DNA of 40,567 nt, taken from the IMG/VR virus record IMGVR_UViG_3300015301_000001, positions 1 through 40,567 of that record; one strand, written 5' to 3'. Each line of letters begins with the position of its first letter. The first letter of the stretch is position 1. Both the position numbers and the translations under genes were made by a program. Below are positions 2,851 through 32,878 of the stretch, in pieces. Under the pieces are notes generated by a model, which saw nothing but the letters and a program-made list of their open reading frames with translations, was not told the DNA's origin and made no database searches. The stretch is from a virus.

Positions 2851-4158
2851 ATGAATGAAGGACTAGATGCCGCCCTCGTGCTCGATACCGAGGGCGGCAA
2901 GCCCAGCAAGCAATACCGCACCAGTCCCTACACGGTGCGCGACTACTGCGGGCTACCCTACGCCCAGCGCGTGGCCGTGGACGCTGCTTGCGATGCTCGG
3001 GCGGGCATTCAGCGCACCGCCTACGCAGACGATACCAGCGTGCAGCCCTACACCGTGGGCCGCGCTACCCAAAAAGTAAAAGGTGCCCAGCCGGCACCTT
3101 TTAAAAGCGCCCAGCAGGCGCAATTACCCTCAACCACTTCACAACCAATTACTGCCATGTCTACCGCCACCGCCTACGTACACCCCGCCCCCTCGCCGGC
3201 CCTGCACACGCTCAACACCCCCGAGGGCATCGACCACAACGCCGCCCACCCCGACAGCCTGGCTACCTACGCCACGCCTGCCGACCAGGAGGCGACCCAC
3301 GGGGACTTCGCTTTTACCCCGGCCGGGCTGCCCGAGGGCGCGCCGCTGGCTGCCCTGGCTGATGCGGTGGACCTCGCCAGCACGCCACCCGCCCCGCCCG
3401 CCCCGGTGGCGCACCCCGGCACGGTGTACGAAACGACCAATTACGACCTGTTTCACCTGCTGCCTGAGAATCGGCCCGTTGACAAGGCCCACGTTCGCAA
3501 GCTGATGGCCTTCATCACCGAGCGCAACCTGCTGCGGGTGCAGCCCTTGGAGGTGACCGCCGACATGGGCCTGATTGATGGGCAGCACCGCCTCGCTGCG
3601 GCTCGTGAGCTGGGCCTGCCGGTGTACTACAAGATTGGTGAGCAGCTGAGGGAGGAAGACATTACGGCCCTCAATATGGCCCGCAAGAACTGGCAGGCCA
3701 CCGACTACCTGCACATGTGGACCATGAAGCGCAAACCCGCTTACGTGGCCTTTACCGACTTCCGGCAGCGTCACCCGCGCATTAGCTTCTCCAACGCCAA
3801 GATTCTGCTTAGCGGCGGCACGGGCGGCTCCAACGCTGAGGAATTTCGCCGTGGGCTGTGGGATGGGGCCGATGATGCCGATGTGGCCCTGGCTGATGAG
3901 GTGGCCGCCCTCGTGGAGCGCATCGCCGACGAGGTGCCCACCTTCAAGCAGGCATTTCACACGGGCTTCGTGGGTGCCCTCTACCACTGCGCTACCCGCG
4001 TGGAGGGCTTCGACGCCAAGGAGTTGATGCGAACCATCCTAGCCCAGCCGCTGAGCCTACTGCCCTGCGCTAGCCATAAGCAGTGGCTGCAAATGCTGGG
4101 CAGTATCTACAACTACCGCAAGAACGAGGGTAACCGCATTCGCTTCAGCAATGACTAA
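2851..4158 (+). CDS. ParB/Srx-fold (ParB N-terminal nuclease-like) domain protein; possible internal start at 3157
   Basis: C-terminal half has PLEVTADMGLIDGQHRLAAARELGLPVYY, the ParB-like DGxHR motif. The frame is open from ATG 2851. A hairpin plus leader cassette precedes ATG 3157. Confidence 0.7.
   Translation: MNEGLDAALVLDTEGGKPSKQYRTSPYTVRDYCGLPYAQRVAVDAACDARAGIQRTAYADDTSVQPYTVGRATQKVKGAQPAPFKSAQQAQLPSTTSQPITAMSTATAYVHPAPSPALHTLNTPEGIDHNAAHPDSLATYATPADQEATHGDFAFTPAGLPEGAPLAALADAVDLASTPPAPPAPVAHPGTVYETTNYDLFHLLPENRPVDKAHVRKLMAFITERNLLRVQPLEVTADMGLIDGQHRLAAARELGLPVYYKIGEQLREEDITALNMARKNWQATDYLHMWTMKRKPAYVAFTDFRQRHPRISFSNAKILLSGGTGGSNAEEFRRGLWDGADDADVALADEVAALVERIADEVPTFKQAFHTGFVGALYHCATRVEGFDAKELMRTILAQPLSLLPCASHKQWLQMLGSIYNYRKNEGNRIRFSND
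3078..3102 (+). terminator. Perfect 10-bp hairpin AAAAGGTGCC-CAGCC-GGCACCTTTT inside ORF 2851..4158
   Basis: Perfect dyad with an A4 tract upstream and T4 downstream, read directly from the sequence. Confidence 0.45.
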
Positions 4159-4831
4159 GAAAGCTGACCGTGACACCCGCCACCTGGAGGCGGTGGGTGT
4201 CTACTACCAAACCGGCGACGAGGCCGCCCTCGGGCCGATGCTGGGCGAGCTGCGCGAGTTGGCGCTGGCTTACCTGCGCGGGCGGCTTCGGGTGCGTGAC
4301 ACTGAACGGGCCGAAGACATAGCGCAAGAGGCATTATTGAAATTGCTGGGCCGCTTGCAGCGCCGCAAATTCAAGATACCAGGCCGCCCGCCCGGCGTGC
4401 TGCTCTGCATCATCTGCCAGCAAAAATTTAGCGCGAGCGCCCGCCACAACCCTAGCGAGCCCAGCCGAAGCGAAGACCCCTTTTTGCTCCTGCCACCCAG
4501 CACCGCCACGCAGGCGCAGGAGCTACCAACCGGCGAGGTGATGGCCGCCGCCACGGCCGCGCTGAGCGCCGCCACGCAGGCCGTGCTTGCCCTTGACCAG
4601 CACGCCCGTGCGGCCGTGGTGCTACACTACTTCCACGGCCTCGACGCGCCGGCCGCCGCCGCGAAGCTGGGCATTGCCGAGTCAGCATTTCGGGCGCGCT
4701 TGCGCCGGGGCCTGGCTGACCTGCAAGCCTGGGGCCGCACAGTGCCCCGCCCCGCTGCCGAGGTGTACGCGGCCCTGAATGGGGTAGACAGTGGCGACCT
4801 GTTCCGTGAGCCGCTCAGGATGGTGGGCTAA
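4151..4831 (+). CDS. Phage-encoded sigma-70 family (ECF-like) RNA polymerase sigma factor
   Basis: Region-2-like ERAEDIAQEALLKLLGRL and region-4 HTH-like ARAAVVLHYFHGLDAPAAAAKLGIAESAFRARLRRGLADL. The start overlaps the upstream stop in ATGACTAA. Confidence 0.7.
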   Translation: MTKKADRDTRHLEAVGVYYQTGDEAALGPMLGELRELALAYLRGRLRVRDTERAEDIAQEALLKLLGRLQRRKFKIPGRPPGVLLCIICQQKFSASARHNPSEPSRSEDPFLLLPPSTATQAQELPTGEVMAAATAALSAATQAVLALDQHARAAVVLHYFHGLDAPAAAAKLGIAESAFRARLRRGLADLQAWGRTVPRPAAEVYAALNGVDSGDLFREPLRMVG

Positions 4832-6579: not shown

Positions 6580-6864
6580 ATGCGAACCGCCGCCCGTGTC
6601 GATGCGAACCAACCTGAGATAGTGAACGCGCTGCGTGCTATCGGGGCGTATGTGTTGCACCTGCACCAGCTAAAAAATTGTTGCGACCTACTCGTGGGCT
6701 TCCGTGGGCGCACCTACCTGATGGAGATAAAAGACCCCGCCCAGCCGCCCAGTAAGCGACAGCTGACCCCCGGCGAAGCAAAGTTTCGGGATGAGTGGAA
6801 AGGCACCCCTTACCACATTGTCGAAACCATCGACCAGGCCCTGAAAATCATTACTACCCCCTGA
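6580..6864 (+). CDS. VRR-NUC / PD-(D/E)xK family small nuclease
   Basis: CDLLVGFRGRTYLMEIKD matches a D...ExK nuclease core; the ~94-aa size is typical of phage VRR-NUC proteins. Confidence 0.6.
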   Translation: MRTAARVDANQPEIVNALRAIGAYVLHLHQLKNCCDLLVGFRGRTYLMEIKDPAQPPSKRQLTPGEAKFRDEWKGTPYHIVETIDQALKIITTP

Positions 6865-6874: not shown

Positions 6875-7084
6875 ATGTACCTTGTCCCTGCTACTGCCTG
6901 CGCCGCCCCCATTACGCCGCGCGTCTTCCTAGCCAGCGAGATAACCGCCGCCGCAAAGGGCGTCGCTGAGCTTACCCAAAAGCATCCGTCTTGGCCGGCT
7001 GCCCGTGTGCGTGCCCAGGTTGCCCGGCAACTGAATGTAAGCACTGTACAGCTTCGTTACCTGCTCCGTCAGGCCAGTAATTAA
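6875..7084 (+). CDS. Hypothetical small protein
   Basis: ORF tightly packed after the nuclease gene. Confidence 0.5.
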   Translation: MYLVPATACAAPITPRVFLASEITAAAKGVAELTQKHPSWPAARVRAQVARQLNVSTVQLRYLLRQASN

Positions 7085-7088
7085 AATC

Positions 7089-7123
7089 CCGTTACGCTTT
7101 TCGCAATCTCGTTACGCTTTTGG
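7089..7123 (+). promoter_or_regulatory. Candidate late promoter/activator site: tandem GTTACGCTTTT (7091..7101, 7111..7121)
   Basis: 31 of 35 positions are identical to the reverse complement of 24376..24410. It lies 44 nt upstream of the first ATG of the rightward late operon. Confidence 0.55.
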
Positions 7124-7167
7124 CCCCTCGCGTTTGTGAGGGGCTGAGGCGGTTCGGAATTTCGGGA

Positions 7168-8661
7168 ATGCCCAACGCCATTGAATCGCGCATACTGAAA
7201 ACCGAGCCCGCCGACTGGCGCTCCTTTCAGTTCGTGCAGCACGACAATTTCAAGGAATTCACCGCCGAAGCGGAGCAGAAGCTCACGGGCTCGCTGCTGG
7301 GTAATAATTTCATTCAGGCCTTCAACGTGTGGGAGGATGAGGCCGGCGCGCTGTGGTGCCTCGATGGCCGCCACCGCGTGCGCGTGCTGGAGCAACTGGC
7401 CGCGAAGGGTACGGAGGTGCCCGCCCGGCTGCCTGCCAACTTCATAGCCTGCGCCAACCGGCAGGAGGCCGCCAAGCTCACGCTGCTCTACTCGTCAGCC
7501 TACGCCCGCACCACGCAGGAGGGCCTCGCCGACTTCCTGAATTACAACGACCTCGACCTGGGCGAGTTGATGGGCGAAATCGACCTGCCCGGCCTCGACC
7601 TCACCAAACTGCTGGAAGGCATAGCCGACCCCGCCCCGATGGAGAAGGCATCACTGGCCGAACGCTTCGGGGTGCCGCCCTTCTCGGTGTTGGATGCCCG
7701 CCAAGGCTACTGGCAGGAGCGGAAGAATGATTGGCTGGCGCAGGGTATCACCAGCGCCGATGGCCGCGCCGACGACCTCACTTTTGGGGGCAGCGCCCGC
7801 CCGCCTTCCTTCTACGACCTGCGCAACACCATGCGGGCGCAGGCCGGTGGGGTAGACCCTACTTGGGAAGCCGTGAACGCGGAGGCCGCCAAGCGTGGGA
7901 TGATGAGCGCCGGCATTGAGGGCACCAGCATTTTCGACCCCGTACTCTGCGAACTGGCCTACCGTTGGTTCTGCCCCACCGCGGGCTCCATTCTTGACCC
8001 GTTCGCGGGCGGCTCAGTGCGTGGCCTTGTGGCGGCGCTGCTGGGCTACACTTACACGGGTATCGACCTACGGCCCGAGCAGGTGGCCGCCAACCAGGAC
8101 CAGGCCGCCGCAGTGCTGAAAAGTGAGCAGCAGTCGCCGGTATGGCTGGCCGGCGACTCGCGCAACCTGCCCGACATGCTGGGCGTGCGCGGGCTGCTCT
8201 ACGACCTCGTTTTCTCCTGCCCGCCCTACGCCGACCTCGAAGTATACAGCGACGACCCCGCCGACCTCTCGACCATGGACTACCCCACGTTCGTGCAGGT
8301 GTACCGCGAAATCATCGCCAAGGCCGTGGCTCAGCTCAAGCCCAACCGCTTTGCCTGCTTCGTCGTGGGGGAGGTGCGCGACCCGAAAGGTATTTACCGC
8401 AACTTCGTCGGTGACACCATCGCCGCCTTCGAAGCAGCGGGGGCACGCTACTACAACGAGATTGTTCTCGTCACCCCGGCCGGCAGCCTGCCCGTGCGCG
8501 TGACCAAGCAATTCCAGAGCGGCCGCAAGGTGGGCAAGTCCCACCAGAACGTGCTCGTCTTCTACAAGGGCGACCCCCGGCAGATAAAAGCCGAGTTCGG
8601 CGAGGTGGCGGTGACGGTGGGCCTGGGTGATGATAGCCCCGACATTTGCCCCGACCCCTAA
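7168..8661 (+). CDS. ParB-like domain / N6- or N4-DNA methyltransferase fusion
   Basis: N-terminal LWCLDGRHRVRVLEQL (ParB-like). C-terminal AdoMet motif ILDPFAGGSVRG and catalytic VFSCPPYADL (SPPY). ATG 7168 is preferred over TTG 7120. Confidence 0.8.
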   Translation: MPNAIESRILKTEPADWRSFQFVQHDNFKEFTAEAEQKLTGSLLGNNFIQAFNVWEDEAGALWCLDGRHRVRVLEQLAAKGTEVPARLPANFIACANRQEAAKLTLLYSSAYARTTQEGLADFLNYNDLDLGELMGEIDLPGLDLTKLLEGIADPAPMEKASLAERFGVPPFSVLDARQGYWQERKNDWLAQGITSADGRADDLTFGGSARPPSFYDLRNTMRAQAGGVDPTWEAVNAEAAKRGMMSAGIEGTSIFDPVLCELAYRWFCPTAGSILDPFAGGSVRGLVAALLGYTYTGIDLRPEQVAANQDQAAAVLKSEQQSPVWLAGDSRNLPDMLGVRGLLYDLVFSCPPYADLEVYSDDPADLSTMDYPTFVQVYREIIAKAVAQLKPNRFACFVVGEVRDPKGIYRNFVGDTIAAFEAAGARYYNEIVLVTPAGSLPVRVTKQFQSGRKVGKSHQNVLVFYKGDPRQIKAEFGEVAVTVGLGDDSPDICPDP

Positions 8662-8675
8662 CCCCAACCCCGAAG

Positions 8676-8885
8676 ATGGAAGACCAGAAAATAACTGCGG
8701 CCCTCGTGAAGCTGCTCGAAGCCAAACTGAAAGACAAAAAGGAGGAAATGGATGGCCTCTCTCAACCCATCCTCGAACGCACCCCCGAATACAACCACCG
8801 CAAGTTTCAAGTCGAAGTAGAGTACTGGCATTTACACGGGTTGCTGACCGATATCCGCAGCCTCGTGGAGAGCCTCAGCAGCTAG
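8676..8885 (+). CDS. Hypothetical small helical protein
   Basis: ATG 8676 (MEDQKITAALVKLLE...) lies within track ORF 8646..8885. Confidence 0.55.
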   Translation: MEDQKITAALVKLLEAKLKDKKEEMDGLSQPILERTPEYNHRKFQVEVEYWHLHGLLTDIRSLVESLSS

Positions 8886-8894
8886 TGAGCCAGC

Positions 8895-8945
8895 CGGGGT
8901 TTTGCGGTCAAAAATCGCCCACCATAAGGGCGGCCCGCAAAACCC
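8895..8945 (+). other. Nested stem-loop (GGGGTTTTGCGG ... CCGCAAAACCCC) upstream of terS; candidate pac or RNA element
   Basis: A 12-bp outer stem encloses a CGCCC/GGGCG inner stem. A third GCCGCAAAA copy abuts the terS ATG. Confidence 0.3.
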
Positions 8946-9017
8946 CAAAAAGGCCACAGGCGGGCTACTCAGCGCCTTCGACGCACTTGCGGGCTACCCT
9001 AGCCGGAAAGCCGCAAA

Positions 9018-9455
9018 ATGAGCACCTCAGCCGCCGAAAATCAGCCGGGCCGCCCGCCCATCGTCATCAACCTCTCGCAGGCCGAATCCCTGTGCCAACT
9101 GGGTTGCACGCTGCGGGAGGTTGCCGGCCATTTCAAGTGCAGCGAGGACACCATACAGCGGGTAATAAAGACTGAGCGCGACCAAACTTTCAGCGAGTTC
9201 TACGCCATGCACTCGGCGGCCGGCAACGTGTCACTGCGGCGCGTGCAGATGCAGCGGGCACTCGCCGGCGATGCGAAGCTGCTTATCTGGCTGGGCAAGC
9301 AGCGGCTGGACCAGGTAGACAAAAAGGAGGTTGACATTACTAGCAAGGGCCAAGGCATCGGCCCGGCTGGCGTGCTGGCTGGCATGTCGTTGGAGGAAAA
9401 GAAGGCGCTGCTGGCGAAGCTGCAAGCCGGGAAGGAGGGGCAGGGTAATGGCTGA
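9018..9455 (+). CDS. terS: Terminase small subunit
   Basis: GRPP...HTH-like LCQLGCTLREVAGHFKCSEDTIQRVIK, immediately upstream of and overlapping terL. Confidence 0.7.
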   Translation: MSTSAAENQPGRPPIVINLSQAESLCQLGCTLREVAGHFKCSEDTIQRVIKTERDQTFSEFYAMHSAAGNVSLRRVQMQRALAGDAKLLIWLGKQRLDQVDKKEVDITSKGQGIGPAGVLAGMSLEEKKALLAKLQAGKEGQGNG

Positions 9456-10986
9456 GCTACTGGCTGACACTGAGGCCGCCATTGACGCGGCGTTACTTGA
9501 AGCGTTGGGCGGGATGACCCCCGACGAGGTAGAGGCTGACATCTGCCGCGAATCGTTTTTCGAGTTCTTTTGCGCGTTCTGGCACACCATCGAAGCCGTT
9601 GAGCTGAAGCTCAATTGGCATATCGAATACCTGTGCAACCAACTGCAAGAGGTCTACGAGCTATGGGAGCAGGGCCGCGCGCAGCCCGACGTACTTATCA
9701 ACGTGCCCCCTGGCACCAGCAAAAGCACGACGGTCACGCAGCTATTTCCGGCCTGGCTGTGGGTGCGCAAGCCCAGCATTCGCCTTATCAGCAGCTCGTT
9801 CAACGCGGGGCTCTCTATCAGCCACAGCACCAAGACGCGCCTGTGCCTCAAGTCGCCGAAGTTTCAGCGGCTATACCCCGGCCTCGTGGAGTTTCAGCAG
9901 GACCAGGACGGTAAAACCGACTACCGGAATACGGCGCTGGGCCAACGCTACAGCACCTCGACCACGGGCGGCCCCACCGGCAACCACGCCGACTTCATCA
10001 TTATTGACGACCCGCTGAACCCGCAGAAGTCGGCGAGTGAGGCGGCGCTGGCCGCAGCTTCGCAGCACCTCAAGACGCTGGCGACGCGCACCACCGACCC
10101 CGAGCGCACCGTGACTATTATGGTGATGCAGCGCATTTCGGACAAAGACCCGGCAGGGGAGTGGCTAGCCAGCGGGCGCAAGCTGCGCCACATCTGCCTA
10201 CCTGGCGAGCTAACCAAGGACGAGAAGACCGGCGAGGTGGGTAAGCAGGTGCGCCCGGCCTACTTGAAAGAGGAATACGTCGACAACCTGCTCGACCCCG
10301 TGCGCCGGCCCCGCTCGGTGTTGCAAGACCTGAAGGTGGTGCTGGGTAGCTACGGCTACGCGGGGCAGATTCAGCAGATGCCAGCACCCGACGAGGGCGG
10401 TATTGTCAAAAAGGCATGGTTCCGCACGATGCCCTACCCCGAGTTCCTCAAGCTGCCCGGTGCCTCGGCTGCCGTGTGGCATGGGGACGCGGATACGGCC
10501 TACACCGACCAGCAGAAGAACGACCCCAGTGCGCTGCTTATCAGCTGCTACATCGGGCAAACGCTGTACGTGAGCTACGTGGACGAGATGTGGCTGGAGC
10601 TACCCCAGCTAAAGAAGCGGCTGCCTCTCGACCTGGCTACCCACAACGCAGTCACGGCCCGCAGCAAGCTGTACGTGGAGCCCAAGGCCAGCGGCAAGAG
10701 CGTGGTGCAGGAACTGCGGGACATTACCGAACTCAACATTGTGGAGGCCCCCACGCCCGATGGCGACAAGCGCAGCCGCGTCAACACGGCCAGCCCCTTC
10801 ATCGAAGCCGGGCGGGTGGTGCTGATTGATGGCAGTTGGAACGAGAAGCTAATCAACCAGGCCGCCGCCTTCCCCAACGCCGCCCACGATGATATGCTCG
10901 ACTGCTTGACGCAAGCCATACGCCGCTATCAGCCCAACGGCTCGAAGCCCATCACTACCTACCAAACATACAGCCCCGCCCCATAA
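9448..10986 (+). CDS. terL: Terminase large subunit
   Basis: Walker A-like NVPPGTSKSTTV and Walker B ADFIIIDDP, with nuclease-half acidic motifs. ATG 9448 overlaps the terS stop. Confidence 0.85.
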   Translation: MAELLADTEAAIDAALLEALGGMTPDEVEADICRESFFEFFCAFWHTIEAVELKLNWHIEYLCNQLQEVYELWEQGRAQPDVLINVPPGTSKSTTVTQLFPAWLWVRKPSIRLISSSFNAGLSISHSTKTRLCLKSPKFQRLYPGLVEFQQDQDGKTDYRNTALGQRYSTSTTGGPTGNHADFIIIDDPLNPQKSASEAALAAASQHLKTLATRTTDPERTVTIMVMQRISDKDPAGEWLASGRKLRHICLPGELTKDEKTGEVGKQVRPAYLKEEYVDNLLDPVRRPRSVLQDLKVVLGSYGYAGQIQQMPAPDEGGIVKKAWFRTMPYPEFLKLPGASAAVWHGDADTAYTDQQKNDPSALLISCYIGQTLYVSYVDEMWLELPQLKKRLPLDLATHNAVTARSKLYVEPKASGKSVVQELRDITELNIVEAPTPDGDKRSRVNTASPFIEAGRVVLIDGSWNEKLINQAAAFPNAAHDDMLDCLTQAIRRYQPNGSKPITTYQTYSPAP

Positions 10987-11738
10987 TGCGCTCCATCACC
11001 CTGCCCAATGCTCCTACCTCTACCCCCCTCCCCGAAAGGTGGGGGGAGCTTACCCTTGGGCAAGCGGCCCGCATTGCGGAGCTGCCCGAGGGCGCAGACG
11101 TGTACAGCTTCCTGAGCATCCTGCTTGACCTCGGCCCGGTGGAGGTGATGAACCTGCCCACCGACTTCGTGAACGAGCAGGTGCTGCCGGTGCTGAGCTT
11201 CGCCAGTGACGAAATGCCCAGCTTCTCGGCCGCTGCCCTGCCGGCCACCATCACCTTGCCCCTTGCTGCCTGCACCAAGGAGCTACCCGTGCCGCCCTCT
11301 CTCGATATTACCACCTTCGGGCAGGCCACCGACCTGGGCGCGCTGCTACAGAACGCCGCCGTGCCCGTGGCTCTCAAGCGAATCAAGGCGCTGGCAATCA
11401 TCTTCTACCCCGCCTACTACGCCACCAAGAAAGACGGTGAGGATGAGAAGGATGCAGACTATGATACCGAAAAGGTGGAGGAATTCGCGGAGCGGGTATG
11501 CAGCGAGGCGCTGATGGAGCAAGCGGTGCCCATTACGGATTTTTTTTTGCGAGCTACGACCGCATTCGGCGCGACCACCACGCCGGCCTCAAGCGCATCC
11601 CCGTCACCTCAGACGAGTACGCCGCTGGCCTCGAAGCCCTCGTGGCTGAGTGGGATGCGCTGGCTGTGGTCAACACGCTGGCCGGTGGGGACAAAACCCA
11701 GTGGGGCTACTTCTTCGGCCGCACCTGGGCCGAGATAA
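10986..11738 (+). CDS. Hypothetical protein, frame-0 reading; only sequence up to the T9 tract (11540..11548) looks genuinely coding
   Basis: TAATG coupling to terL. After the T9 tract, the frame-0 product becomes P/S/T/A-rich and looks like off-frame sequence. Confidence 0.55.
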   Translation: MRSITLPNAPTSTPLPERWGELTLGQAARIAELPEGADVYSFLSILLDLGPVEVMNLPTDFVNEQVLPVLSFASDEMPSFSAAALPATITLPLAACTKELPVPPSLDITTFGQATDLGALLQNAAVPVALKRIKALAIIFYPAYYATKKDGEDEKDADYDTEKVEEFAERVCSEALMEQAVPITDFFLRATTAFGATTTPASSASPSPQTSTPLASKPSWLSGMRWLWSTRWPVGTKPSGATSSAAPGPR

Positions 11739-11818
11739 ACACGATGATACTCTTTGAGAATCACCAGGCACACTATCGCTACCAACTCCACAAACGCCAG
11801 CAGCGCAATCAGAAATGA
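11498..11818 (+). CDS. The -1 frame continuation of the preceding gene (coding-like from the T9 tract onward)
   Basis: From 11540 the -1 frame gives FFFASYDRIRRDHHAGLKRIPVTSDEYAAGLEALVAEW... and is coupled by ATGA to the next gene. Confidence 0.55.
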   Translation: MQRGADGASGAHYGFFFASYDRIRRDHHAGLKRIPVTSDEYAAGLEALVAEWDALAVVNTLAGGDKTQWGYFFGRTWAEINTMILFENHQAHYRYQLHKRQQRNQK

Positions 11819-12009
11819 AACGGATACACCCCGCCTCCCTGGAAGACCTGCGGCTTGAGCTACTCGACGCCCAGGCCACGCTATTCACCTTCCCGCCCGG
11901 CAGCTACACCGGGCAGCAGGCACTCGCCACGGCGGGCCGGCTGCGGCACGAAATCAAAGAAACTGAGGGCGCTATTGCCTCACTCACCACCAGCTTGCCC
12001 ACACCATGA
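11815..12009 (+). CDS. Hypothetical small protein (tail/connector module)
   Basis: ATGA overlaps at both ends. Confidence 0.6.
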   Translation: MKRIHPASLEDLRLELLDAQATLFTFPPGSYTGQQALATAGRLRHEIKETEGAIASLTTSLPTP

Positions 12010-12473
12010 AACTGCCCCACGACACCGTAAAAGCCTGCGCTGAGGCGCTGCTGCCCGGCTGCCATTACGTGCATGGTGAATCGGATTTTGGCAACATCAA
12101 GCTCGACGGGACAATGGCCGGCCAGCGCGTCGTCTACCTCGATGACAACATGCCCCTGCGCTTCAACACGAACAAGTACGGCCAGATTACGGGGGCTACC
12201 TACTCGTGTCTGCTGATGCTCTTGGTACCCTCGAAGCTGGGCGACACGCCCGACCACCGGCAGCCCATCGTTGAGGAAATGGTGAACGCCAGCGCCCACA
12301 TGATGGCCGCGCTGGGTAAGGATAGCCGCGTGAAGGAGGTGAAGATGCAGCGCCCGGCTGACATCGTTTTTAACGAGTTCGACCTCAACGCCGATGGCGT
12401 GGCGCTCTACCTCGACATTACCATGAACGGCGCGCTGAACCCCTGCCTGCCCATTGTTGAGGCTCAGGTATGA
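12006..12473 (+). CDS. Hypothetical virion-module protein
   Basis: Translationally coupled ORF with normal protein composition. Confidence 0.7.
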   Translation: MKLPHDTVKACAEALLPGCHYVHGESDFGNIKLDGTMAGQRVVYLDDNMPLRFNTNKYGQITGATYSCLLMLLVPSKLGDTPDHRQPIVEEMVNASAHMMAALGKDSRVKEVKMQRPADIVFNEFDLNADGVALYLDITMNGALNPCLPIVEAQV

Positions 12474-12919
12474 TAACCTTCGAGCAGCTCCTGTCCCGGC
12501 AGATTCTCAAGCTGCATGAGGACGTGGCCGATACCATGCAGGCCAACGGCCAGCGGGCCACTGGCAAGACCATCGCGGCCCTGCGCAGCACCAGCGGCCC
12601 CGAGTACGCCGCCCTGCTCGGCCCCGCCCACTCGCGCTTCCTGCGTGACGGGCGCGGGCCTGGCAAGGTGAGCGTGAATGCTATTCGGGAATGGATTCGG
12701 GCCAAACGGCTCAAGCTCGACCCCTTCGCTGTGGCTGAGAAAATCAGCCGCGTGGGCACGCTGCTTTTCCGTGGCGAAGACCCGCGCTTTACCAAGCCCA
12801 CCGACACGTTCAGCGGCCCCATTGCGGCAGCCCTGCCTCGGTTTCGCGCCGGCCTGGCTGAAGCTGCCCGCTCGGGCCTGCGCTCCGACCTCGTAAACCT
12901 CACTACTACCCGCCTGTAA
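12470..12919 (+). CDS. Hypothetical virion-module protein
   Basis: ATGA overlap upstream and TAATG overlap downstream. Confidence 0.7.
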   Translation: MITFEQLLSRQILKLHEDVADTMQANGQRATGKTIAALRSTSGPEYAALLGPAHSRFLRDGRGPGKVSVNAIREWIRAKRLKLDPFAVAEKISRVGTLLFRGEDPRFTKPTDTFSGPIAAALPRFRAGLAEAARSGLRSDLVNLTTTRL

Positions 12920-14268
12920 TGAATCCTCCCGGCAGCGGCGCACAGCCCACCATTATCAGCCTCTCAAGCACCTGCGCGACGACTGGCGAGAGCATCATCT
13001 TCTTCACCTGCAACAAGGCCATTTCCTCGTCAGACTTGGGCCTGGAGCTAGTCAACTCGGTTACGGGTGACGTAGCATGGTCGGGTGGCTTCGGCGGTGC
13101 GACCAATGCCCAGTCGTTCACCATTAAGGGCACCAAGAACGGCGATTACCTGCTGACTGCTGATAACGGTGAGGCCACCAAGTCGGTCAACGTGTCAGTT
13201 GACTGCGCGGGCAGTACGCCCAACTGCGACCTCGTGTTGGTAAGCGCCACCCCGACGCCCCCGACTACGGTTGGCGGCTTCGGCTACGTCAATTTCAAGT
13301 ACACCACGGCCACGCAGTTTGTGCTTGGCGTGACCGTATCCGGCCCCGTGACGCGGGCCGCCAACTTCACCAACACGGGCGAGGCGCAGGTGGACAACCT
13401 GCCGGCCGGGGCCTACCTCTACACCATTGCCCAGTCGGCAAATCCCGATTGCCAGCTGAACGGCTCGTTCACCATCGCCGCGCCCGCGGCTCCCATCGAC
13501 CCCAGCCTGAACCAGCCGGCCCGCTGGGAGCCGGTCGGCGGCGTGCTACCCAACCCGGTGCTGCTGAAGGTGGAGGCTGCCCTTACGGATGCCCTGGGCG
13601 CGGCGCGGCCCGGCCTGCATGTGGAGGTAGAGCTGTGGCGCGTTGGGCTGTTCGTGCCCTTCGCTGAGTTTAGCGCGACTATCCGCACGGCCACCCAGTA
13701 CGTGAACGCTGCGCCCTACCTGCGTGCTGAACTGCTGGCAGCCGCCCGCTACCCAGGCAGCCAAGCCACGCCCCTGATTGACAGCGACAGCAGCCTTGAA
13801 TTTTACTACCGCTACCGCATCACCGACGCGGCCGGCTCCGAGCCCTGGGTGAAGCGGGCGGGCCTGCGCTATGCGGTACTGGCTGCCCTGCCTGCCGCCG
13901 CCGATACCATGCTGCCCTTCCTCGCCGATGGCGCGGGGCGCGTGGCGAGCATCTTCCCCAACGACGAGGCCACGCAGTTCGTGGGCCTGCCCTTGGAGGT
14001 GAGCGTGCTACTACCCACTGCGGCCACCTTCCGATACGCCGAACTGCGCTACCTCAACGCCTACGGGCAGGAGCTTGAAATCCGCTCGTTTGCCCTGGCT
14101 GACTACCTACCGGCTGGCTACCTACGCATACCACTACCAGCCGACCCGCTGCCCGACGCTACCACCGTTGAGGTCGCCATTGTCGATACTGACCGCGCCC
14201 ACGGCCCTGGCACCCCGCCCGCCGCGCCTGGCTACCTGCTCACCAACACCGGCCGCCTCAAACTGTAA
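12919..14268 (+). CDS. Structural protein with Cys-bounded Ig-like/SprB-repeat-like modules
   Basis: Segment C...GGFGYV...NLPAGAYLYTIAQSANPDC resembles the SprB repeat pattern (LxAGxYxxxxxDxxGC). Confidence 0.65.
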   Translation: MNPPGSGAQPTIISLSSTCATTGESIIFFTCNKAISSSDLGLELVNSVTGDVAWSGGFGGATNAQSFTIKGTKNGDYLLTADNGEATKSVNVSVDCAGSTPNCDLVLVSATPTPPTTVGGFGYVNFKYTTATQFVLGVTVSGPVTRAANFTNTGEAQVDNLPAGAYLYTIAQSANPDCQLNGSFTIAAPAAPIDPSLNQPARWEPVGGVLPNPVLLKVEAALTDALGAARPGLHVEVELWRVGLFVPFAEFSATIRTATQYVNAAPYLRAELLAAARYPGSQATPLIDSDSSLEFYYRYRITDAAGSEPWVKRAGLRYAVLAALPAAADTMLPFLADGAGRVASIFPNDEATQFVGLPLEVSVLLPTAATFRYAELRYLNAYGQELEIRSFALADYLPAGYLRIPLPADPLPDATTVEVAIVDTDRAHGPGTPPAAPGYLLTNTGRLKL

Positions 14269-14271
14269 ACC

Positions 14272-16239
14272 ATGCCCAACCCCGCCAACACCCCCGCGCA
14301 ACAGGATGAGCGCATTAACGGGCTGCCCGCCCTGCCGGCCGGTACTGACCGCGCCACGCTCACCGTTCCCGTTTTCAACCCTGCGACCAACAAGACGCAC
14401 GAGGCCCCGCTCGTGGCCGATGACGGGGCCACCACGAGTAACGCCGTAGTTGGCGGCCACAAGTTCGTGCGCTACCGTGACAGCCGCCTGAACGGGGTGC
14501 CGGCTACGGCTCTCACCCTCGACCGCCTCAAGCCTGCCACCATCGTGCCCCAGACGCAGGCCACGGTCTTCAACCCATCCAATACGCCGCTAACTACCAG
14601 CGAGCCGCCGCGCACCTACGAGGCGAAGGAAGTAGCCCCCGGCACTGCCGGCGCGGTGATGGTGCCTCGCTTTATCGGTGCGGCGGCCAGCGATACCGTG
14701 CCCATCATCTGGCAGGAGCTTGCCACGGCTAGCACGGGCGGGCCGTTTCAGGTACGCACCTATTGGCCGGTTATCTTCCTCACCCATGCCGAGGCAGTGG
14801 CCTGGGGCCGGCCCAACTGCCTCTCACTCGACCAGATACCCAACGAGTTTCTGTGTAGCGGTAGCACCGCCCGCGTTGACCTGCACCCCGACAAATACGG
14901 GCAAAACATGCTGCTCATATATGATGACCGCCCCAACCAGATGGACGGGATACGGGCCTACATCGACGGGAATTTTCAGCGATACTACGACATGACCGTT
15001 GACGGCCTGAACCCGCAAAAGTGGGTGAAGGATGGTAGCCCCGAAGCCGCCACGGCGAGTATCAAACGGTACGACCCGGCTTATGCCAAGTGGGCGAAAG
15101 ACCAGACAATGAAAATCGACATCGGCGGCACCGATGCCTTTTTTAGCGCCATCAACCCTGGCGGCCCCTTCCCTGCACCCACAGCGGCCGGGGTAGCTAC
15201 TGCCGACTGGAAACCCGCCGCCAAGCCGCAGGCTCAGGACCTGAGCCCTATCGTGGCCCAGCACACGCAGCAACTGGCAACCATCGCCACGCAGTCCTCG
15301 CCGGTATATGGTTTCCTCAAAGCGGGCGGTGCGCCCGTTGGCTATACCTCGATTGATGATGCGCTGGCTGACCCTCAGCCCAAAACCTCGCAGACCTTCA
15401 ACACGGCGCTACTCGTGCTCACCAAGAGCAACCCGGCCACTGGCACCGGCTGGGCCTACGCCACGGCTGCGCTCGGGCGCACGTTGCAGTTCGGCAACAA
15501 TGTGGAACTGACGCTGCCCGGCGATGATGCTGGCTCGCTCACCTTCCAAGATTTCTATATTGAGCAAGCCCCCGGCGCGCGCGGCGGCAAGGTGCGCCTG
15601 CTGACCAAGGCCCCCGACACCACCCCGCCCGCTCTGCTGCCGCGTCTCTCGGGCTACTGCGGCAAGCCGTTGGAGTTTGTCAACGGCGGCGCGGCCCTAC
15701 TCAGTGGCTACTATGGCAGCCTGACCGGCACCGGCACCGCCTTCGTGGTGGAGCCCTTCCAAGCGGATAACGTGGCGGCTACGGTGAAGGTGGTACGCCT
15801 GGGAGGTGGTGGGGGAAGTGGCAGCAGCTACACCGATGCCCAAGCCGCCGCCGCCGCGCTGGCCTCGCTCATTGCTGGCAACAATCAGCACCAGGGCGTA
15901 GAAGTGCAGGCCGTGGGCGGGGTGCCCAAGCTGATTGTGGCCGGCCTATTCACGGATATAATCCGCATGCGAATGCCCGCGCCGGGCTCGGGCAACCTAG
16001 CCGAAGGCACGGACTTTCGGGATGCCAACACGGCCGGGCTCTACAAGCTGACCAACGCCACCAACGTGGCCCGCCTGACCATTTTAAAAGACAATGGCCC
16101 GTCGTCGCGCTTTGACGACGCGCTAGCCAACTTCCCCACCACTGGCGTGGGCATTGAGGATAATAGTTATTTCACTTACCGGCTGCTCCCGATTGATGCC
16201 ACGCAGCCGGTGAGCCTGGAGCTTACCCTGACCCGCTAA
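14272..16239 (+). CDS. Large virion structural protein (tail/fibre-like, beta-rich, G5SGSS linker)
   Basis: 655-aa ORF in the structural block; no catalytic motifs recognised. Confidence 0.7.
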   Translation: MPNPANTPAQQDERINGLPALPAGTDRATLTVPVFNPATNKTHEAPLVADDGATTSNAVVGGHKFVRYRDSRLNGVPATALTLDRLKPATIVPQTQATVFNPSNTPLTTSEPPRTYEAKEVAPGTAGAVMVPRFIGAAASDTVPIIWQELATASTGGPFQVRTYWPVIFLTHAEAVAWGRPNCLSLDQIPNEFLCSGSTARVDLHPDKYGQNMLLIYDDRPNQMDGIRAYIDGNFQRYYDMTVDGLNPQKWVKDGSPEAATASIKRYDPAYAKWAKDQTMKIDIGGTDAFFSAINPGGPFPAPTAAGVATADWKPAAKPQAQDLSPIVAQHTQQLATIATQSSPVYGFLKAGGAPVGYTSIDDALADPQPKTSQTFNTALLVLTKSNPATGTGWAYATAALGRTLQFGNNVELTLPGDDAGSLTFQDFYIEQAPGARGGKVRLLTKAPDTTPPALLPRLSGYCGKPLEFVNGGAALLSGYYGSLTGTGTAFVVEPFQADNVAATVKVVRLGGGGGSGSSYTDAQAAAAALASLIAGNNQHQGVEVQAVGGVPKLIVAGLFTDIIRMRMPAPGSGNLAEGTDFRDANTAGLYKLTNATNVARLTILKDNGPSSRFDDALANFPTTGVGIEDNSYFTYRLLPIDATQPVSLELTLTR

Positions 16240-16868
16240 TGAGAGTCGCCCGCATCATCACGAACATACAGTGCGGCCCGCGTAGCATCGTGGACCTGCT
16301 CACTAAGGACTACCTGCGCCTGAATGCCTCGGCTGACCCTACCACTCCCTACTCACTGAGCTTTCCCATACCAGCCGGCAAAAACGGCCTGACCATCGCC
16401 TTCTACACCCGGCAGGTGTCTGGCAACTTTGAGGGGTACTACCCCATACTCGAAGGCACCAATGGCTTGGATGGTGGTTTTGGCGGCTCGCAATTCGTGT
16501 ACGGCATTTTTCAAACGGCCGGCTTGTGGGTCGAAGGCTCAAATTTTGGCTATGGCCCCCGCTACCTCTATTCCTACCGGCGCTTCGTGCCGGTGGTAGT
16601 CCGCACCGCCCCCGGCGCGAGTTACGGGGCTGGCCGAATTGTTTTGAATGCCCCGGCCAATTCATCAATTCCTCGCAGCAACCTACTTGGTGACGTGGAT
16701 TTGGCCTACATGCCAGTGTACTATCGCCGCCTGACCGATGCCGAACTGGCGGCCCCCATGCTGCCCAGCGACTACGACCAGCTTTACACCTTCGCCAGCT
16801 ACACAGTCGGCGACACCACCGTGATTGAGCAGCTGGGCACCGGCCTTGATGCCACCCTTGTTTTCTAA
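16239..16868 (+). CDS. Hypothetical tail-module protein
   Basis: TAATG coupling to the upstream gene. Confidence 0.65.
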   Translation: MRVARIITNIQCGPRSIVDLLTKDYLRLNASADPTTPYSLSFPIPAGKNGLTIAFYTRQVSGNFEGYYPILEGTNGLDGGFGGSQFVYGIFQTAGLWVEGSNFGYGPRYLYSYRRFVPVVVRTAPGASYGAGRIVLNAPANSSIPRSNLLGDVDLAYMPVYYRRLTDAELAAPMLPSDYDQLYTFASYTVGDTTVIEQLGTGLDATLVF

Positions 16869-16894
16869 TTGCCTCACGCTACCACTCTCTGCAA

Positions 16895-17317
16895 ATGAAC
16901 TACCTAGCGGCCCCCCTACGCCTCACCCTTGCCCCCGCCTGCGGTAGCCCTGAGTACCTGCGCTGGCTTTCCCCGCTCGGCACATGGGAGGGCTGGGCCT
17001 TCTCGGGCGACGTGGACACCAAAACCGACGTCACCGAATCCAGCGACATCAGCACCGCCGACGCGCGGGTGAGCGTGGCCGTGCGCCGGGCCGCCACTGA
17101 CACCCTCACGGTGCGGGCCGGCGACCTCAGCACGGCCCAGCACACGGCACTCACCACCTTGCTCGACTCGCCCCAGGTGTACCGGCAGGAGGCAGACGGT
17201 AGCCGCGTGCCGGTGCTGATTCTGCCAAATTCCAGCGTAAGCCGCACCAGCTCCGATGGCCGCCACGAGTTGGAGCTAACGCTGAAACTTCCCGCCCGCA
17301 ACGCCTTGACCAACTAA
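16895..17317 (+). CDS. Hypothetical tail-module protein (distal-tail-like by size and position)
   Basis: 140-aa ORF directly before the 730-aa tail protein gene. Confidence 0.6.
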   Translation: MNYLAAPLRLTLAPACGSPEYLRWLSPLGTWEGWAFSGDVDTKTDVTESSDISTADARVSVAVRRAATDTLTVRAGDLSTAQHTALTTLLDSPQVYRQEADGSRVPVLILPNSSVSRTSSDGRHELELTLKLPARNALTN

Positions 17318-17320
17318 CCG

Positions 17321-19513
17321 ATGGCCTACCAACTCACGTACCCCGATGGCAGCGCCCAGCCCCTTACGGGCCGCGTGGCTATCACGCGCCAAGACAACGA
17401 CCTGACGAAGCCCGAGACAATTCAGGCCGCGTTCTCCACCTCGTTCGCTTTGCCGGACGACATGGAAACCCACAAGCGCCTCAGGCTGCCCAACGTGGGC
17501 ACCAGTCGCAGCACGGCCCCGTACAAGGGCGCTACGGCCTGCCTCGAAGCCAGTGGGGTGGAGGTGCTGCCCGGCGCTCGCCTTTACTTGGACGACCACA
17601 CGCCGCGCGCCGGCTACACCGGCAAGCTGCTGGCTGGCAACCGGGGATTTTACGACCTGCTCGTGAATGAAGACGGGAGCGATAAGACACTGCGGCAACT
17701 TGACCTTTCGGCCTTCGACCACGATTGGACGCTGGGCACGGTGGCGCAGGGGGCCGGGCATAGCAGTTGGGAGCAGGGCTACGTGTACGACCTCTACGAC
17801 CGGGGCCTGGGCGCGCCCCCGCTGCCGGCTGCCGGCTCCAGCAAGTTGTTCGAGGCGGGCTACTGGCCTAGCACCTACGCCCGCGCTGTACTCGAAGCTA
17901 TCTTTTTGGGGGCTGGCGTGAAGCGCAAGGGCGAACTGCCCGCCATTTTCGACACGGCCCTACTGCCTGCCGTTCAGGCCTTCGGCTACTCCGAAGCCAC
18001 GCGGGCGGCGCATGAGCTTGTGGCCGGCTACAGCCCCACCGATGGCCGGCGCAAGTTTGAGGATGAGCAGAACAACGCCGTGCCCTACTCCTGGGTGCTG
18101 CCCTACCGGCACGCGCCAGCGGTGGGCATTGACGAGGTGGACAATAGCAACCTGCACCAAGGGGCAGCGGTCAGCTTCAACGCCGCCACCAGCACCTACA
18201 CCGTCACCACCCCCGGCTTCTACGACATCAAGGCCGAGCAGCAAGTGGCGATTTACTGTAACTCGGTGCTGAACGGCGAGGTGGCCGCCGCCCTGGAAAT
18301 CAAGATAAACGGCACGCGGGTAGACGTGGACAGCATCCGGGGCAACGGCAACCAGGATACGGTTCTCACGGCCCTGGCTGAGCGCCAACTGCTGAAGGTG
18401 GGCGACACCATACAGGCCCGCTATCTGTTCGATGGCTTCGGCGGCGGCTTCGCCAGCACCGGCCCCTTCGATGAATCTTGGACCCTGATACCGGTGGGCC
18501 AATTCTCCATTCAGCTGCTCGGTGACTTCCCGCCGCGCGGGCGCGTCCACCTGGCTGATTGGCTGCCCGAGATGACGCAAAAGGAATTCGTGAAGCACGT
18601 CATTCAAACCTACGGGCTTACCCAAACCACCAACCCCTACACGGCCGCCGTTACCCTGCGGCTCACCTCGCAGGTAGTGACCGACCCGCGCACCACGGGG
18701 CAGGATTGGACGGAGCTGCGCGACGGTAGCCAGCCCGCTAAGCGCAGTTGGAAGCTGGGCGACTACGCCCTGCGCAATTGGTTTCGGTGGAAGGACGACG
18801 ACACAAATACCGCCTACGCGCAGGCCGTTTTTGAGCAAAGCCACGCCGGCCAACTGTGGAACGACGAGGCCGCCAAGGCAGCGGCCCAGGCCTTCGGCGC
18901 GGGCTACCTCGACAACGGGGCCGGCGACACCAGCCTGCCAGCCACCAAGGACGTGCTTACCCTGCCCTTCGCCGCCTCGCCGGTAGGGGCCGAGGGGCTG
19001 CTGCTCGTGCCCTACTGGAAACCGAAGGCTGGCACCAACTACGCCGACGACCTGGCTACCATTCAGCAGGCGCTCAATAATGGCACCTACACCCCCGAGG
19101 AAGCGCAGGCCGCCCGCGTGAAGGCCCTGGGTGATGATTTTGAAACGCAGGAGCCGGGGCCGCGCTTCGTGTACCAGTTACTGGCTACCCGTGAGGTACT
19201 GCTCGAAGATGATGCCGGCCAGAAGCAGCGCGTGCCGCTGCGCCTGAGCTACTTCGTGAGCCGCACCCAGCCCGAGGACCTGGACTTTACCCGCTCGCTG
19301 CTGCCCCATTATTACCCGCACCTGGCTGCGGCCCTCGTGCGGCCGCTCGTGCTACGGCCCAGCGTTTACCTGAGCCCGGCCGAGTTGGTAGCCTTCGACC
19401 AGCTTGTGGCCGTGTGGCTGAACGACGAGCAAGCATGGTTCTACGTCAACAAAATTGACGGGTGGGAAGATGGCGAGCCCAGCACGACAGTGGAGTTAAT
19501 CCGGATATCGTAG
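17321..19513 (+). CDS. Large tail/baseplate protein (candidate host-recognition protein)
   Basis: 730-aa ORF and last gene of the rightward structural operon. Confidence 0.7.
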   Translation: MAYQLTYPDGSAQPLTGRVAITRQDNDLTKPETIQAAFSTSFALPDDMETHKRLRLPNVGTSRSTAPYKGATACLEASGVEVLPGARLYLDDHTPRAGYTGKLLAGNRGFYDLLVNEDGSDKTLRQLDLSAFDHDWTLGTVAQGAGHSSWEQGYVYDLYDRGLGAPPLPAAGSSKLFEAGYWPSTYARAVLEAIFLGAGVKRKGELPAIFDTALLPAVQAFGYSEATRAAHELVAGYSPTDGRRKFEDEQNNAVPYSWVLPYRHAPAVGIDEVDNSNLHQGAAVSFNAATSTYTVTTPGFYDIKAEQQVAIYCNSVLNGEVAAALEIKINGTRVDVDSIRGNGNQDTVLTALAERQLLKVGDTIQARYLFDGFGGGFASTGPFDESWTLIPVGQFSIQLLGDFPPRGRVHLADWLPEMTQKEFVKHVIQTYGLTQTTNPYTAAVTLRLTSQVVTDPRTTGQDWTELRDGSQPAKRSWKLGDYALRNWFRWKDDDTNTAYAQAVFEQSHAGQLWNDEAAKAAAQAFGAGYLDNGAGDTSLPATKDVLTLPFAASPVGAEGLLLVPYWKPKAGTNYADDLATIQQALNNGTYTPEEAQAARVKALGDDFETQEPGPRFVYQLLATREVLLEDDAGQKQRVPLRLSYFVSRTQPEDLDFTRSLLPHYYPHLAAALVRPLVLRPSVYLSPAELVAFDQLVAVWLNDEQAWFYVNKIDGWEDGEPSTTVELIRIS

Positions 19514-19522
19514 CTTGGTGGC

Positions 19523-20020
19523 ATGAAAAAGGTACTACTCCCTCTGCTTGTGCTCATTGGTTGCAAAAGCGCGCCCGTGGAAGACCCGGCGCATAGTGCT
19601 ATAAGTGCCCTGCTGAAAAAGAGCATGGACGACCCAGCCAGTTACCAGCCAGTGAGTTGGAGCAAGCCCGAGGTGAGGTCGGTGCATGACAGCGTGGCCG
19701 CCTATAAGTACACGCTGGCTTCACAGATTATTACTAAAAATAAATTAATTTATATTGACTCGTCATCGGTAGCCCAAAACGGCGGGCGGGGCAGCTACGT
19801 GGAGAGCATGTTGAAAAGCACCCGCGCAAGTCTTGCCGCCGCCCGCCGTGAGCGAGATTCTTTATACCAAGCACTGCACCAGCCCTTTCCCAGCCCTGAC
19901 ACGGCGCGGCTGGGCTACTCAGTAACCCATGCGTTCAGGGCCAAGAACAAGTTTTCGGCCCTCGTCCTGGATAGTGCTGAGTTCTTTGTTGACCGGAAGG
20001 GCCGCATCTACCCGCGCTAG
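19523..20020 (+). CDS. Lipoprotein (moron; candidate superinfection-exclusion factor)
   Basis: Signal peptide with lipobox MKKVLLPLLVLIGC. Contains a locally AT-rich stretch. Confidence 0.75.
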   Translation: MKKVLLPLLVLIGCKSAPVEDPAHSAISALLKKSMDDPASYQPVSWSKPEVRSVHDSVAAYKYTLASQIITKNKLIYIDSSSVAQNGGRGSYVESMLKSTRASLAAARRERDSLYQALHQPFPSPDTARLGYSVTHAFRAKNKFSALVLDSAEFFVDRKGRIYPR

Positions 20021-20274
20021 GCGGCCACGTTCAACTCCTGCTCCATCTCCTTGATTGAAAGGTACACGGTAGAGCGCGCAACGCGGCACGAGGCGGCGGT
20101 GGCCTTCGCCGCGTTGCTGGGCCGGTCAACGTAGGCCGGGGTGGCGCGCAGGGCCTTGTAGGTGTTGTAAATATCCCGGCGCGAGTACACGGCCAGCGTC
20201 ACCGCCCCCGCCTTGTAGAGCGGAAACAGGATGCCGGCCTGCTCCATGTTGTTCAATAAATCGACTAGCCTCAT
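20017..20274 (-). CDS. Small HTH DNA-binding protein
   Basis: C-terminal AASCRVARSTVYLSIKEM is HTH-like. It starts 2 nt after the tape-measure stop, and its stop overlaps the lipoprotein stop (CTAG). Confidence 0.55.
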   Translation of the reverse strand: MRLVDLLNNMEQAGILFPLYKAGAVTLAVYSRRDIYNTYKALRATPAYVDRPSNAAKATAASCRVARSTVYLSIKEMEQELNVAA

Positions 20275-20276
20275 GG

Positions 20277-24326: not shown

Positions 24327-24375
24327 AATGCCCCGAATTTCCTGCCGAGGTTGGCACGTCTGCAAGCCTGCATAC

Positions 24376-32862: not shown

Positions 32863-32866
32863 GTGC

Positions 32867-32874: not shown

Positions 32875-32878
32875 GGAC

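Follow-up and report, generated by a model that had tools for sequence, protein, structure and literature searches.

We analysed a 40,567-nucleotide stretch of viral DNA (IMG/VR record IMGVR_UViG_3300015301_000001, positions 1 to 40,567; "the window" below means the whole of this stretch) that carries two copies of a tandem direct-repeat element, one upstream of the methylase/terminase/tail operon (site A) and one, on the opposite strand, upstream of the putative tape-measure gene (site B). The repeats are probably an upstream activator site for a 69-amino-acid (aa) helix-turn-helix (HTH) protein encoded directly next to site A, hereafter HTH69, which would act on late promoters of a −33/−7 type that yield leaderless mRNAs. 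The initial annotation, made from the sequence alone, had taken the 35-bp element for a phage-specific late promoter recognized by a phage sigma factor or by a late activator. The element does appear to be a control signal of late operons, although it is better described as an upstream activator site than as the promoter itself; of the two proposed readers, the late activator fits the evidence, namely the linkage of HTH69 to the element and the covariation of its predicted recognition helix with the repeats. The features on which the argument depends are as follows.

6875–7084 (+): HTH69 gene, encoding a 69-aa basic HTH protein, the final gene of the early/replication cluster
7091–7101 (+): site A, repeat 1, GTTACGCTTTT, with a conserved AATCCC (7085–7090) directly 5'
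7111–7121 (+): site A, repeat 2, GTTACGCTTTT, with a conserved GCAA (7103–7106) between the repeats
7133–7136 (+): proposed −33 element of site A, TTTG
7156–7166 (+): proposed deviant −7 box of site A, GGAATTTCGGG, with the 8-mer GAATTTCG at 7157–7164, 20 nt after TTTG and 3 nt before the ATG
24398–24408 (−): site B, repeat 1, GTTACGCTTTT
24378–24388 (−): site B, repeat 2, GTTACGCTTTT
24363–24366 (−): proposed −33 element of site B (tape-measure promoter), CTTG
24332–24342 (−): proposed −7-like box of site B, GGAAATTCGGG, 5 nt 5' of the ATG at 24326

The segment 7089–7123 (+) is equal to the reverse complement of 24376–24410 at 31 of 35 positions, and the 33-nt cores, 7090–7122 (+) with the sequence CGTTACGCTTTTCGCAATCTCGTTACGCTTTTG and 24377–24409 (−) with the reverse-complement sequence CGTTACGCTTTTCGCAATCCTGTTACGCTTTTG, differ only in the two bases directly before repeat 2. 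The 11-mer GTTACGCTTTT is present in exactly four copies in the window, starting at 7091 and 7111 (+) and at 24408 and 24388 (−), with a 20-bp period in each pair. With up to one mismatch allowed, the chance expectation is 0.42 matches, and four or more matches were found in none of 100 shuffled sequences; the full 33-mer never occurred in the shuffles. Allowing two mismatches added a single, chance-level match and no further or degenerate sites in the window. Sequence comparison and shuffling thus bear out the tandem repeat, its 20-bp period and the 31/35 match of the two copies that the initial annotation had reported, and the distances of 44 nt from the element to the ATG of the methylase operon (7168, +) and 49 nt to that of the tape-measure gene (24326, −) are correct, as is the presence of GGAA(A/T)TTCGGG before both ATGs (7156–7166 and 24342–24332). 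Bases 1–123 of the window are identical to bases 40445–40567. The window is a circular or end-overlapping assembly of a complete phage genome of ~40,444 bp, and given this 123-bp terminal overlap, sites A and B are therefore the only two sites in the complete ~40.4-kb genome.

The anatomy and geometry of the element were derived from an alignment of 42 unique sites. The consensus order is AA-N4/5, repeat 1, nGCA(A/G)-N4, repeat 2, G, 10 variable nt and (T/C)TTG, continued by ~19 variable nt, GGAAnTTCG(G/A)(G/A), 1–7 nt and ATG. All 42 sites have 34 or 35 nt between repeat 2 and GGAA; the TTG is invariant or near-invariant at its exact offset between variable flanks; and within the GGAAnTTCG box, G, G, A, T and T are invariant and A, C and G at least 90% conserved. 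The (T/C)TTG is separated by 20–21 nt from the 8-mer GAAnTTCG, and the ATG follows 3–7 nt after the 8-mer. In Bacteroidota, the primary sigma factor reads −33 TTTG and −7 TAnnTTTG (PMC2483708), the −7 box occupies positions −12 to −5, and ~5% of the mRNAs are leaderless (PMC9723704). GAAnTTCG is equal to TAnnTTTG at four of the six specified positions, with A2, T5, T6 and G8 kept. In the original descriptions, the spacing between −33 TTTG and the −7 box is ~19–21 nt. We infer that TTTG and GGAAnTTCG form the core promoter of leaderless or near-leaderless late mRNAs, with the repeats, at about −55 and −75, serving as an upstream activator site. The GGAAnTTCGGG sequence, initially described as a leader motif, indeed stands at the position given and is better read as the −7-like box of this core promoter. 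Elsewhere in the window, GGAAnTTCG occurs at chance level only.

Three other readings of these sites were tried and discarded: TAAgCTGG as the −7 box, which is present only in some sites; a sigma-54 promoter, TGGCAC...TTGC, picked by eye, in which GG and GC are 12 nt apart and not 10; and TTTG as a degenerate third repeat, the offset being 14 nt and not 20. Exact TAnnTTTG boxes are found, as had been noted, at the higB (32867, +), int (35857, −) and early rightward (36764, +) promoters. The higB promoter (32839–32881, +) has the structure TTG-N20-TACCTTTG-N4-ATG, the same layout as the late sites, which predicts a leaderless toxin mRNA. The start of the head operon, at ATG 24484, is preceded at 4 nt by a near-consensus −7 box, AAACTTTG (24472–24479, +), and no conserved, properly spaced −33 was seen there. 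In nine diverged relatives, this ATG lies at a constant 73–75 nt from repeat 1 of site B, which may therefore act in both directions and serve the divergent head operon as well.

At the RNA level, the consensus fold of the sites (RNAalifold) has an energy of −0.42 kcal/mol and zero covarying pairs, and the window has no match in Rfam, so a structured RNA leader, riboswitch or put-like element was rejected. The absence of a conserved RNA fold combined with the fixed spacing therefore indicates a constraint on DNA geometry. The window itself has a 10-bp, GC-rich hairpin at 7122–7145 (+), of −21 kcal/mol and without a T-run, that encloses the TTTG box after site A. In a test for this named helix, 59.5% of the cells were paired versus 59.1% in column shuffles, so that the hairpin is not conserved in relatives; it may locally terminate or attenuate transcription reading through from the early operon. 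No terminator-like site was found downstream of site A.

An exact-pattern scan of IMG/VR recovered the element in 16 stretches, and a partly degenerate pattern in 17 metagenome stretches. A degenerate pattern matched Hymenobacter sp. H14-R3, H. ginkgonis, one Hymenobacter metagenome-assembled genome (MAG) and one probably mis-binned MAG; its matches in Hymenobacter genomes are in phage contexts only, and ~59 matches in other taxa are unrelated low-complexity or chance occurrences. The degenerate pattern GTNNCGCTTTT-N9-GTNNCGCTTTT retrieved from IMG/VR this phage family and one AT-rich chance match, and nothing else. Because of the element matches in Hymenobacter genomes, the window, with a G+C content of 62%, is assigned to a temperate phage of Hymenobacter (Bacteroidota).

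A tblastn search with the window proteins resolved two syntenic contexts of the element: the H-type, right after the stop codon of the 69-aa gene (~26 contexts), and the T-type, between the divergent protease and tape-measure genes (~16 contexts). Many loci were retrieved through the motif itself, others independently through protease alignment and through HTH69 homologues; among the protein-retrieved loci, the element or a class variant of it is present in every close relative. The element thus lies upstream of late operons at the same two positions in related genomes, which supports the view that it is a conserved, phage-specific cis-regulatory signal oriented with its late operon. Some relatives have additional copies. 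In contig IMGVR_UViG_3300045450_000143 (loci L016 and L018) there are four late-type sites, two of which are the syntenic ones. The other two are a third full two-repeat site, at L016:874–904 (−), 3' of a terminator-like hairpin and 5' of a tail gene, and a one-repeat version, at L018:~7130–7200 (−), with intact TTTG and GGAAATTTG boxes. In L154:2440–2700 (+), a terminator is followed by a one-repeat GTTACGCTTTT late-type promoter and then by a distant HTH69 paralogue, P0059, with the recognition helix QTWVVRYLLRR, an arrangement that suggests a two-step regulatory cascade in some phages. The extra copies in L016, L018 and L154 look like promoters in their setting. The more distant relatives L027 and L034–L038 have no tape-measure gene beside the protease gene; ~60–100 nt 5' of the latter, they contain a covarying palindrome (e.g., CTGACGCAG-N4-CTGCGTCAG) accompanied by a single G(A/G)CG(C)TTTT-nCTAC motif. 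This palindrome may be a different operator.

HTH69 is a 7.5 kDa protein with a pI of 10.9, and the stop codon of its gene lies 6 nt 5' of repeat 1 of site A. Homologues are encoded directly 5' of the element in 26 contexts, with repeat 1 beginning 0–6 nt past the stop codon in 23 distinct protein-site pairs; in L139, L144, L145, L147, L149, L150 and L152, the gene is directly 5' of a Terminase_2 (TerS) gene. The early regions of the relatives are mosaic, and only the HTH69 gene and the preceding 94-aa open reading frame (ORF), orf6580, stay linked to the late module. The AlphaFold model of HTH69 (mean predicted local distance difference test score of 83.5) has a disordered N-terminus and helices at residues 20–36, 42–53 and 57–68. 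Matches to the Fis-type HTH_8 domain at residues 45–65 were obtained for 37 of 47 homologues, all below threshold, as were matches to MerR. HTH69 belongs to no Pfam or PHROGs family and does not match RinA, ArpU or Sigma70_r4 even at E ≤ 10; a sequence-profile search of the PDB gave nothing relevant; and Foldseek returned generic three-helix HTH folds only (TnpE, homeodomains, DeoR; E > 0.2), with no significant match to sigma region 4 or to Q. No paralogue was found in the window and no homologue in a set of 50,697 GenBank phage records. The family is small, with 20 clusters at 50% identity among 1.84 billion representatives.

Helix 3 (T57–Q66) is invariant in the 47 homologues except at position 58, position 63 (conservative L/M/I), position 65 and position 66. 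When 23 distinct protein-site pairs were tabulated, including sites retrieved via the protein instead of the motif, the variable residues sorted with the repeat core as follows.

Val58 and Arg65: repeat core GTTACGC, 12 of 12 pairs
Arg58, Gln65 and Gln66: repeat core GTG(T/A)CG, 6 of 6 pairs
Val58, Ser or Gln at 65, and Lys66: repeat core GTTGCG, two pure pairs and one mixed
Val58 with Asn65 or Thr65: repeat core GTTACGC, two pairs

At repeat position 3, T accompanies Val58 in 17 of 17 pairs and G accompanies Arg58 in 6 of 6; at repeat position 4, A accompanies Arg65 in 12 of 12 pairs, and G goes with Ser or Gln at 65 combined with Lys66. Within the predicted recognition helix, residues 58 and 65 take positions 2 and 9, which on the modelled fold are classic base-contact positions, and the pairing of a Val to Arg replacement with a T to G change is chemically sensible. 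The Arg class was predicted from a single genome (L063) and then held in five further independent proteins fetched via the protein; one contig of the Arg58 type is Ga0540648_0000637 (47 kb). In the H14-R3 prophage, which lies on NZ_JASITD010000028 and encodes Arg58, the adjacent site is GTGACGC ×2 and the tape-measure site, located in another 8-kb piece of this contig and thus not adjacent to the HTH69 gene, is GTGGCGC ×2, both of class G. Eight Val-type genomes have GTTACGC at both sites, and class-G tape-measure sites co-occur with Arg-type genes in two metagenome samples. Members of a Thr58 subfamily are encoded 0.7–2 kb from their GTTACGC sites.

We infer the binding of HTH69 to the repeats, activation as opposed to repression, the position of the transcription start and the sigma factor used, and on this basis the following course of events can be proposed. 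As HTH69 accumulates, two copies or two dimers would bind the two direct repeats, and the 20-bp spacing would align them along one face of the helix, with centres near −55 and −75. The bound protein would then bring host RNA polymerase, carrying the primary sigma factor, to a weak core promoter downstream, composed of a proper −33 TTTG and a non-consensus −7 GAAnTTCG, with transcription starting at the start codon or a few bases before it. Site A would in this way switch on the methylase/terminase/tail operon, and site B the opposite-strand tape-measure operon and perhaps the head operon.

Several observations weigh against this scheme. The searches described above produced no significant match between HTH69 and any characterised activator, whether in Pfam, PHROGs, PDB profiles or Foldseek. 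In most pairs the helix-3 codons are ~40 nt from the adjacent site, so that co-inheritance in one recombination block could mimic functional coupling; the Arg58 class may have a single evolutionary origin within one lineage; and the unlinked test for this class comes from one genome only, H14-R3. The head operon, which runs away from the tape-measure gene, lacks a copy of the repeat element; it is a third late unit, which corrects the initial count of two divergent late operons. With regard to the core promoter, the late start sites are assigned from geometry only, and conservation of the −7 box in a non-consensus form would not be needed for a merely weak primary-sigma promoter and could point to another recognition factor. 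An alternative core would use TTTG as the downstream half of a −7 box, placing the repeats at −25/−45 and giving a leader of ~30 nt; it fits worse because no TA-like positions are present at all.

These points bear on the question of whether the repeats are read by a factor of the host, be it a Hymenobacter activator or a holoenzyme with an alternative or extracytoplasmic function (ECF) sigma factor, in which case the covariation would reflect linkage and HTH69 would do something else. We consider this unlikely. The joint inheritance of the helix-3 codons and the adjacent site, the availability of only one unlinked Arg58 genome and the conserved non-consensus GGAAnTTCG, which a non-primary sigma factor could read, all are compatible with such a factor. 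However, a host regulator should have chromosomal targets, whereas the element occurs in Hymenobacter genomes only beside phage genes. Furthermore, the repeat classes differ among phages of one host genus, in concert at both H14-R3 sites, which implies a phage-borne specificity determinant, and the protein changes fall at canonical base-contact positions of an otherwise invariant helix.

Quite unlikely, too, is the possibility that HTH69 binds the repeats in a capacity other than polymerase recruitment: as an antiterminator of the lambda Q type, as a replacement of sigma region 4 or a sigma appropriator, or as a late repressor or timer. The location of the HTH69 gene immediately 5' of its site is reminiscent of lambda Q and qut, the −7-like box keeps its non-consensus form across the family, and the strong hairpin at 7122–7145 lies just 3' of the repeats. 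Against antitermination, there is no conserved terminator or RNA structure downstream, and with the start codon directly adjoining the promoter there is no leader in which a pause or loading site could lie. The location of the repeats upstream of the core promoter, not over it, is atypical for repressors, and among the Foldseek matches nothing significant resembled sigma region 4 or Q.

It is very improbable that the two boxes are read as −35 and −10 elements by the phage sigma factor that the initial annotation had put forward. The ORF 4151–4831 (+) does encode an ECF-like sigma factor, as had been recognized, with Pfam matches to sigma-70 region 4_2 (E 1e-8) and, weakly, to region 2, and the 20-bp distance between the boxes is near the ECF −35/−10 spacing. 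However, no homologue of this protein was detected in any relative examined (tblastn) or in IMG/VR (peptide pattern search). In particular, the closest relative, L134, with TerL 96% identical and late genes 87–100% identical to those of the window, showed no homologue of the sigma in the 10 kb of upstream sequence covered. Likewise, no sigma-70 domain was found by a Pfam scan of L017, L019 and L021, which covered 35 ORFs in the 10 kb before the element, or among precomputed Pfam matches in the examined early regions of L139 (integrase to activator gene) and L145. The relatives without a detected sigma all carry the element or its class variants. In addition, both repeats of a site change together (GTTACGC ×2, GTGTCGC ×2, GTGGCGC ×2, GTGACGC ×2 and GTTGCG ×2), the only mixed-repeat site being that of L132; one reading head used twice would explain such concerted, identical boxes, which are unlike the targets of the separate −35 and −10 domains of a sigma factor. 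The sigma gene thus appears from its distribution to be an accessory gene of the mosaic early region and not the late switch.

Finally, hardly any probability attaches to the proposal that the two copies, which are mutually inverted and 17.3 kb apart, with one just 5' of the terminase genes, flip the 17-kb segment between them, or else serve as pac sites or replication iterons: in none of ~42 contexts (~26 H-type and ~16 T-type) are the flanks exchanged, which leaves the inversion considered in the initial annotation without support; the homology between the copies spans only 33 bp; no invertase gene is adjacent, and the sole recombinase is a tyrosine integrase (34466–35833) encoded far from both copies; the extra copies in relatives are co-oriented with the downstream genes; a packaging or replication role would not account for the two to four copies, each oriented with a gene and set at a constant distance from promoter-like boxes and start codons; and a separate iteron-like array is present at 39383–39520.

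The gene content of the window around these sites is as follows.

Early cluster: replication gene with iteron-like repeats, helicase, ParB-like protein, ECF-like sigma factor (4151–4831) and small ORFs
6580–6864 (+): 94-aa ORF (orf6580), followed by the 69-aa ORF at 6875–7084 (+), end of the early cluster
7168–20020 (+): late operon 1 (packaging/tail), with methylase, putative TerS, TerL and tail genes
7168–8661 (+): first gene of late operon 1, ParB-N-like and N6/N4 DNA methylase domains
9018–9455: putative TerS
9448–10986: TerL, followed by tail genes up to 20020
20277–24326 (−): late operon 2, putative tape-measure gene (1349 aa), with syntenic homologues
20017–20274 (−): small ORF downstream of the tape-measure gene, on the same strand
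24484 (+): ATG at the start of the head/lysis operon, first gene encoding a ClpP-like protease
Accessory and lysogeny genes: higBA, tyrosine integrase (34466–35833) and cI-like repressor

The tape-measure gene has no match in Pfam and was assigned from size, composition and position. Together with the one small ORF (20017–24326), it is on the strand opposite to all other structural genes, an unusual layout that is kept throughout the close family. The product of orf6580 resembles, as judged by eye from the sequence, a nuclease of the PD-(D/E)xK type; its position in L152 and L153 is occupied by a 154-aa ORF with a Pfam match to VRR_NUC. The tandem array at 39383–39520 (+) has a period of 33, 4.2 copies and 77% matches, lies within a replication-initiator-like gene (39094–40083) and codes for peptide repeats of the sequence NTSKIEA; the array probably represents iterons of the origin. 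The capsid protein shares only 22% identity with its counterpart in a Bacteroides phage of the GenBank set.

A literature search yielded no account of late-gene control in Bacteroidota phages or of a system of this kind. The analysis provides a concrete regulator-operator pair with predicted specificity residues and a predicted late promoter architecture, for which an isolate lysogen, Hymenobacter sp. H14-R3, is available, and for annotation purposes the motif marks the starts of late operons in a family of Hymenobacter phages. If the proposed role of HTH69 is correct, the logic of Gram-positive phages in which a small activator works on direct repeats adjacent to its own gene reaches an unrelated protein family and another phylum, and proteins of this kind could furnish compact orthogonal transcription switches for Bacteroidota. 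A broader generalization can be offered only tentatively and strikes us as rather unlikely in its entirety: HTH69-type proteins would be new, minimal late switches specific to Bacteroidota phages that reprogram the polymerase to a TTTG + GGAAnTTCGGG promoter class with leaderless mRNAs, with specificity set by residues 58 and 65/66 and with a cascade in some phages.

Several known systems invite comparison. P2 Ogr and P4 Delta are activators of ~70 aa that work at a number of late promoters by way of a conserved element upstream, near −55 in the case of Ogr, which is a zinc-finger protein recognising a dyad element. The lambda Q gene is directly 5' of its site, and its product acts by antitermination, for which a pause site and a terminator further downstream are required. 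Neither the dyad and zinc finger of Ogr nor the pause site and terminator of Q are seen here. The C and Mor proteins of phage Mu bind as dimers to inverted repeats overlapping the −35 region, whereas the present element consists of direct repeats, apparently upstream of an intact −33 and a deviant −7, and these proteins show no sequence similarity to HTH69. The likeness is that each is a small phage activator with a C-terminal HTH (PMC2582627, PMC4461284) and that a common site and a defective core promoter, used by the host polymerase, recur at several late promoters; the Mu late promoters have a recognizable −10 and no typical −35 (PMC2582627). The core promoters proposed here resemble those of the Bacteroidota primary sigma factor in the TTTG, the 20–21-nt spacer and the 8-mer that keeps A2, T5, T6 and G8, and differ from them in that the 8-mer is GAAnTTCG, a deviant form found family-wide within GGAAnTTCGGG.

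The closest functional analogue would be the Ltr superfamily (RinA, ArpU and LtrA-C) of Gram-positive siphoviruses, whose members recognise direct repeats located just past their own gene and activate terS and the late operon (PMC3753634); the organisational features are shared, although HTH69 is not a demonstrable member. There is no detectable homology (RinA, ArpU and Sigma70_r4 are unmatched, leaving only the weak Fis-type HTH_8), and HTH69 is half the size, 69 aa against ~130 aa. Here two 11-bp repeats have a 20-bp period, whereas the Ltr proteins recognise three or four 7-nt repeats; there are two to four target promoters per genome, one of them on the opposite strand; and the host belongs to Bacteroidota, with −33/−7 promoters and probably leaderless late mRNAs. 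In both cases, nevertheless, a small basic protein is encoded by the last gene of the early cluster, directly 5' of the late operon, and direct repeats follow right after the coding sequence of the regulator, 5' of the terminase/late operon; the Ltr proteins are the master switch of the packaging and morphogenesis genes, a role that HTH69 may share.

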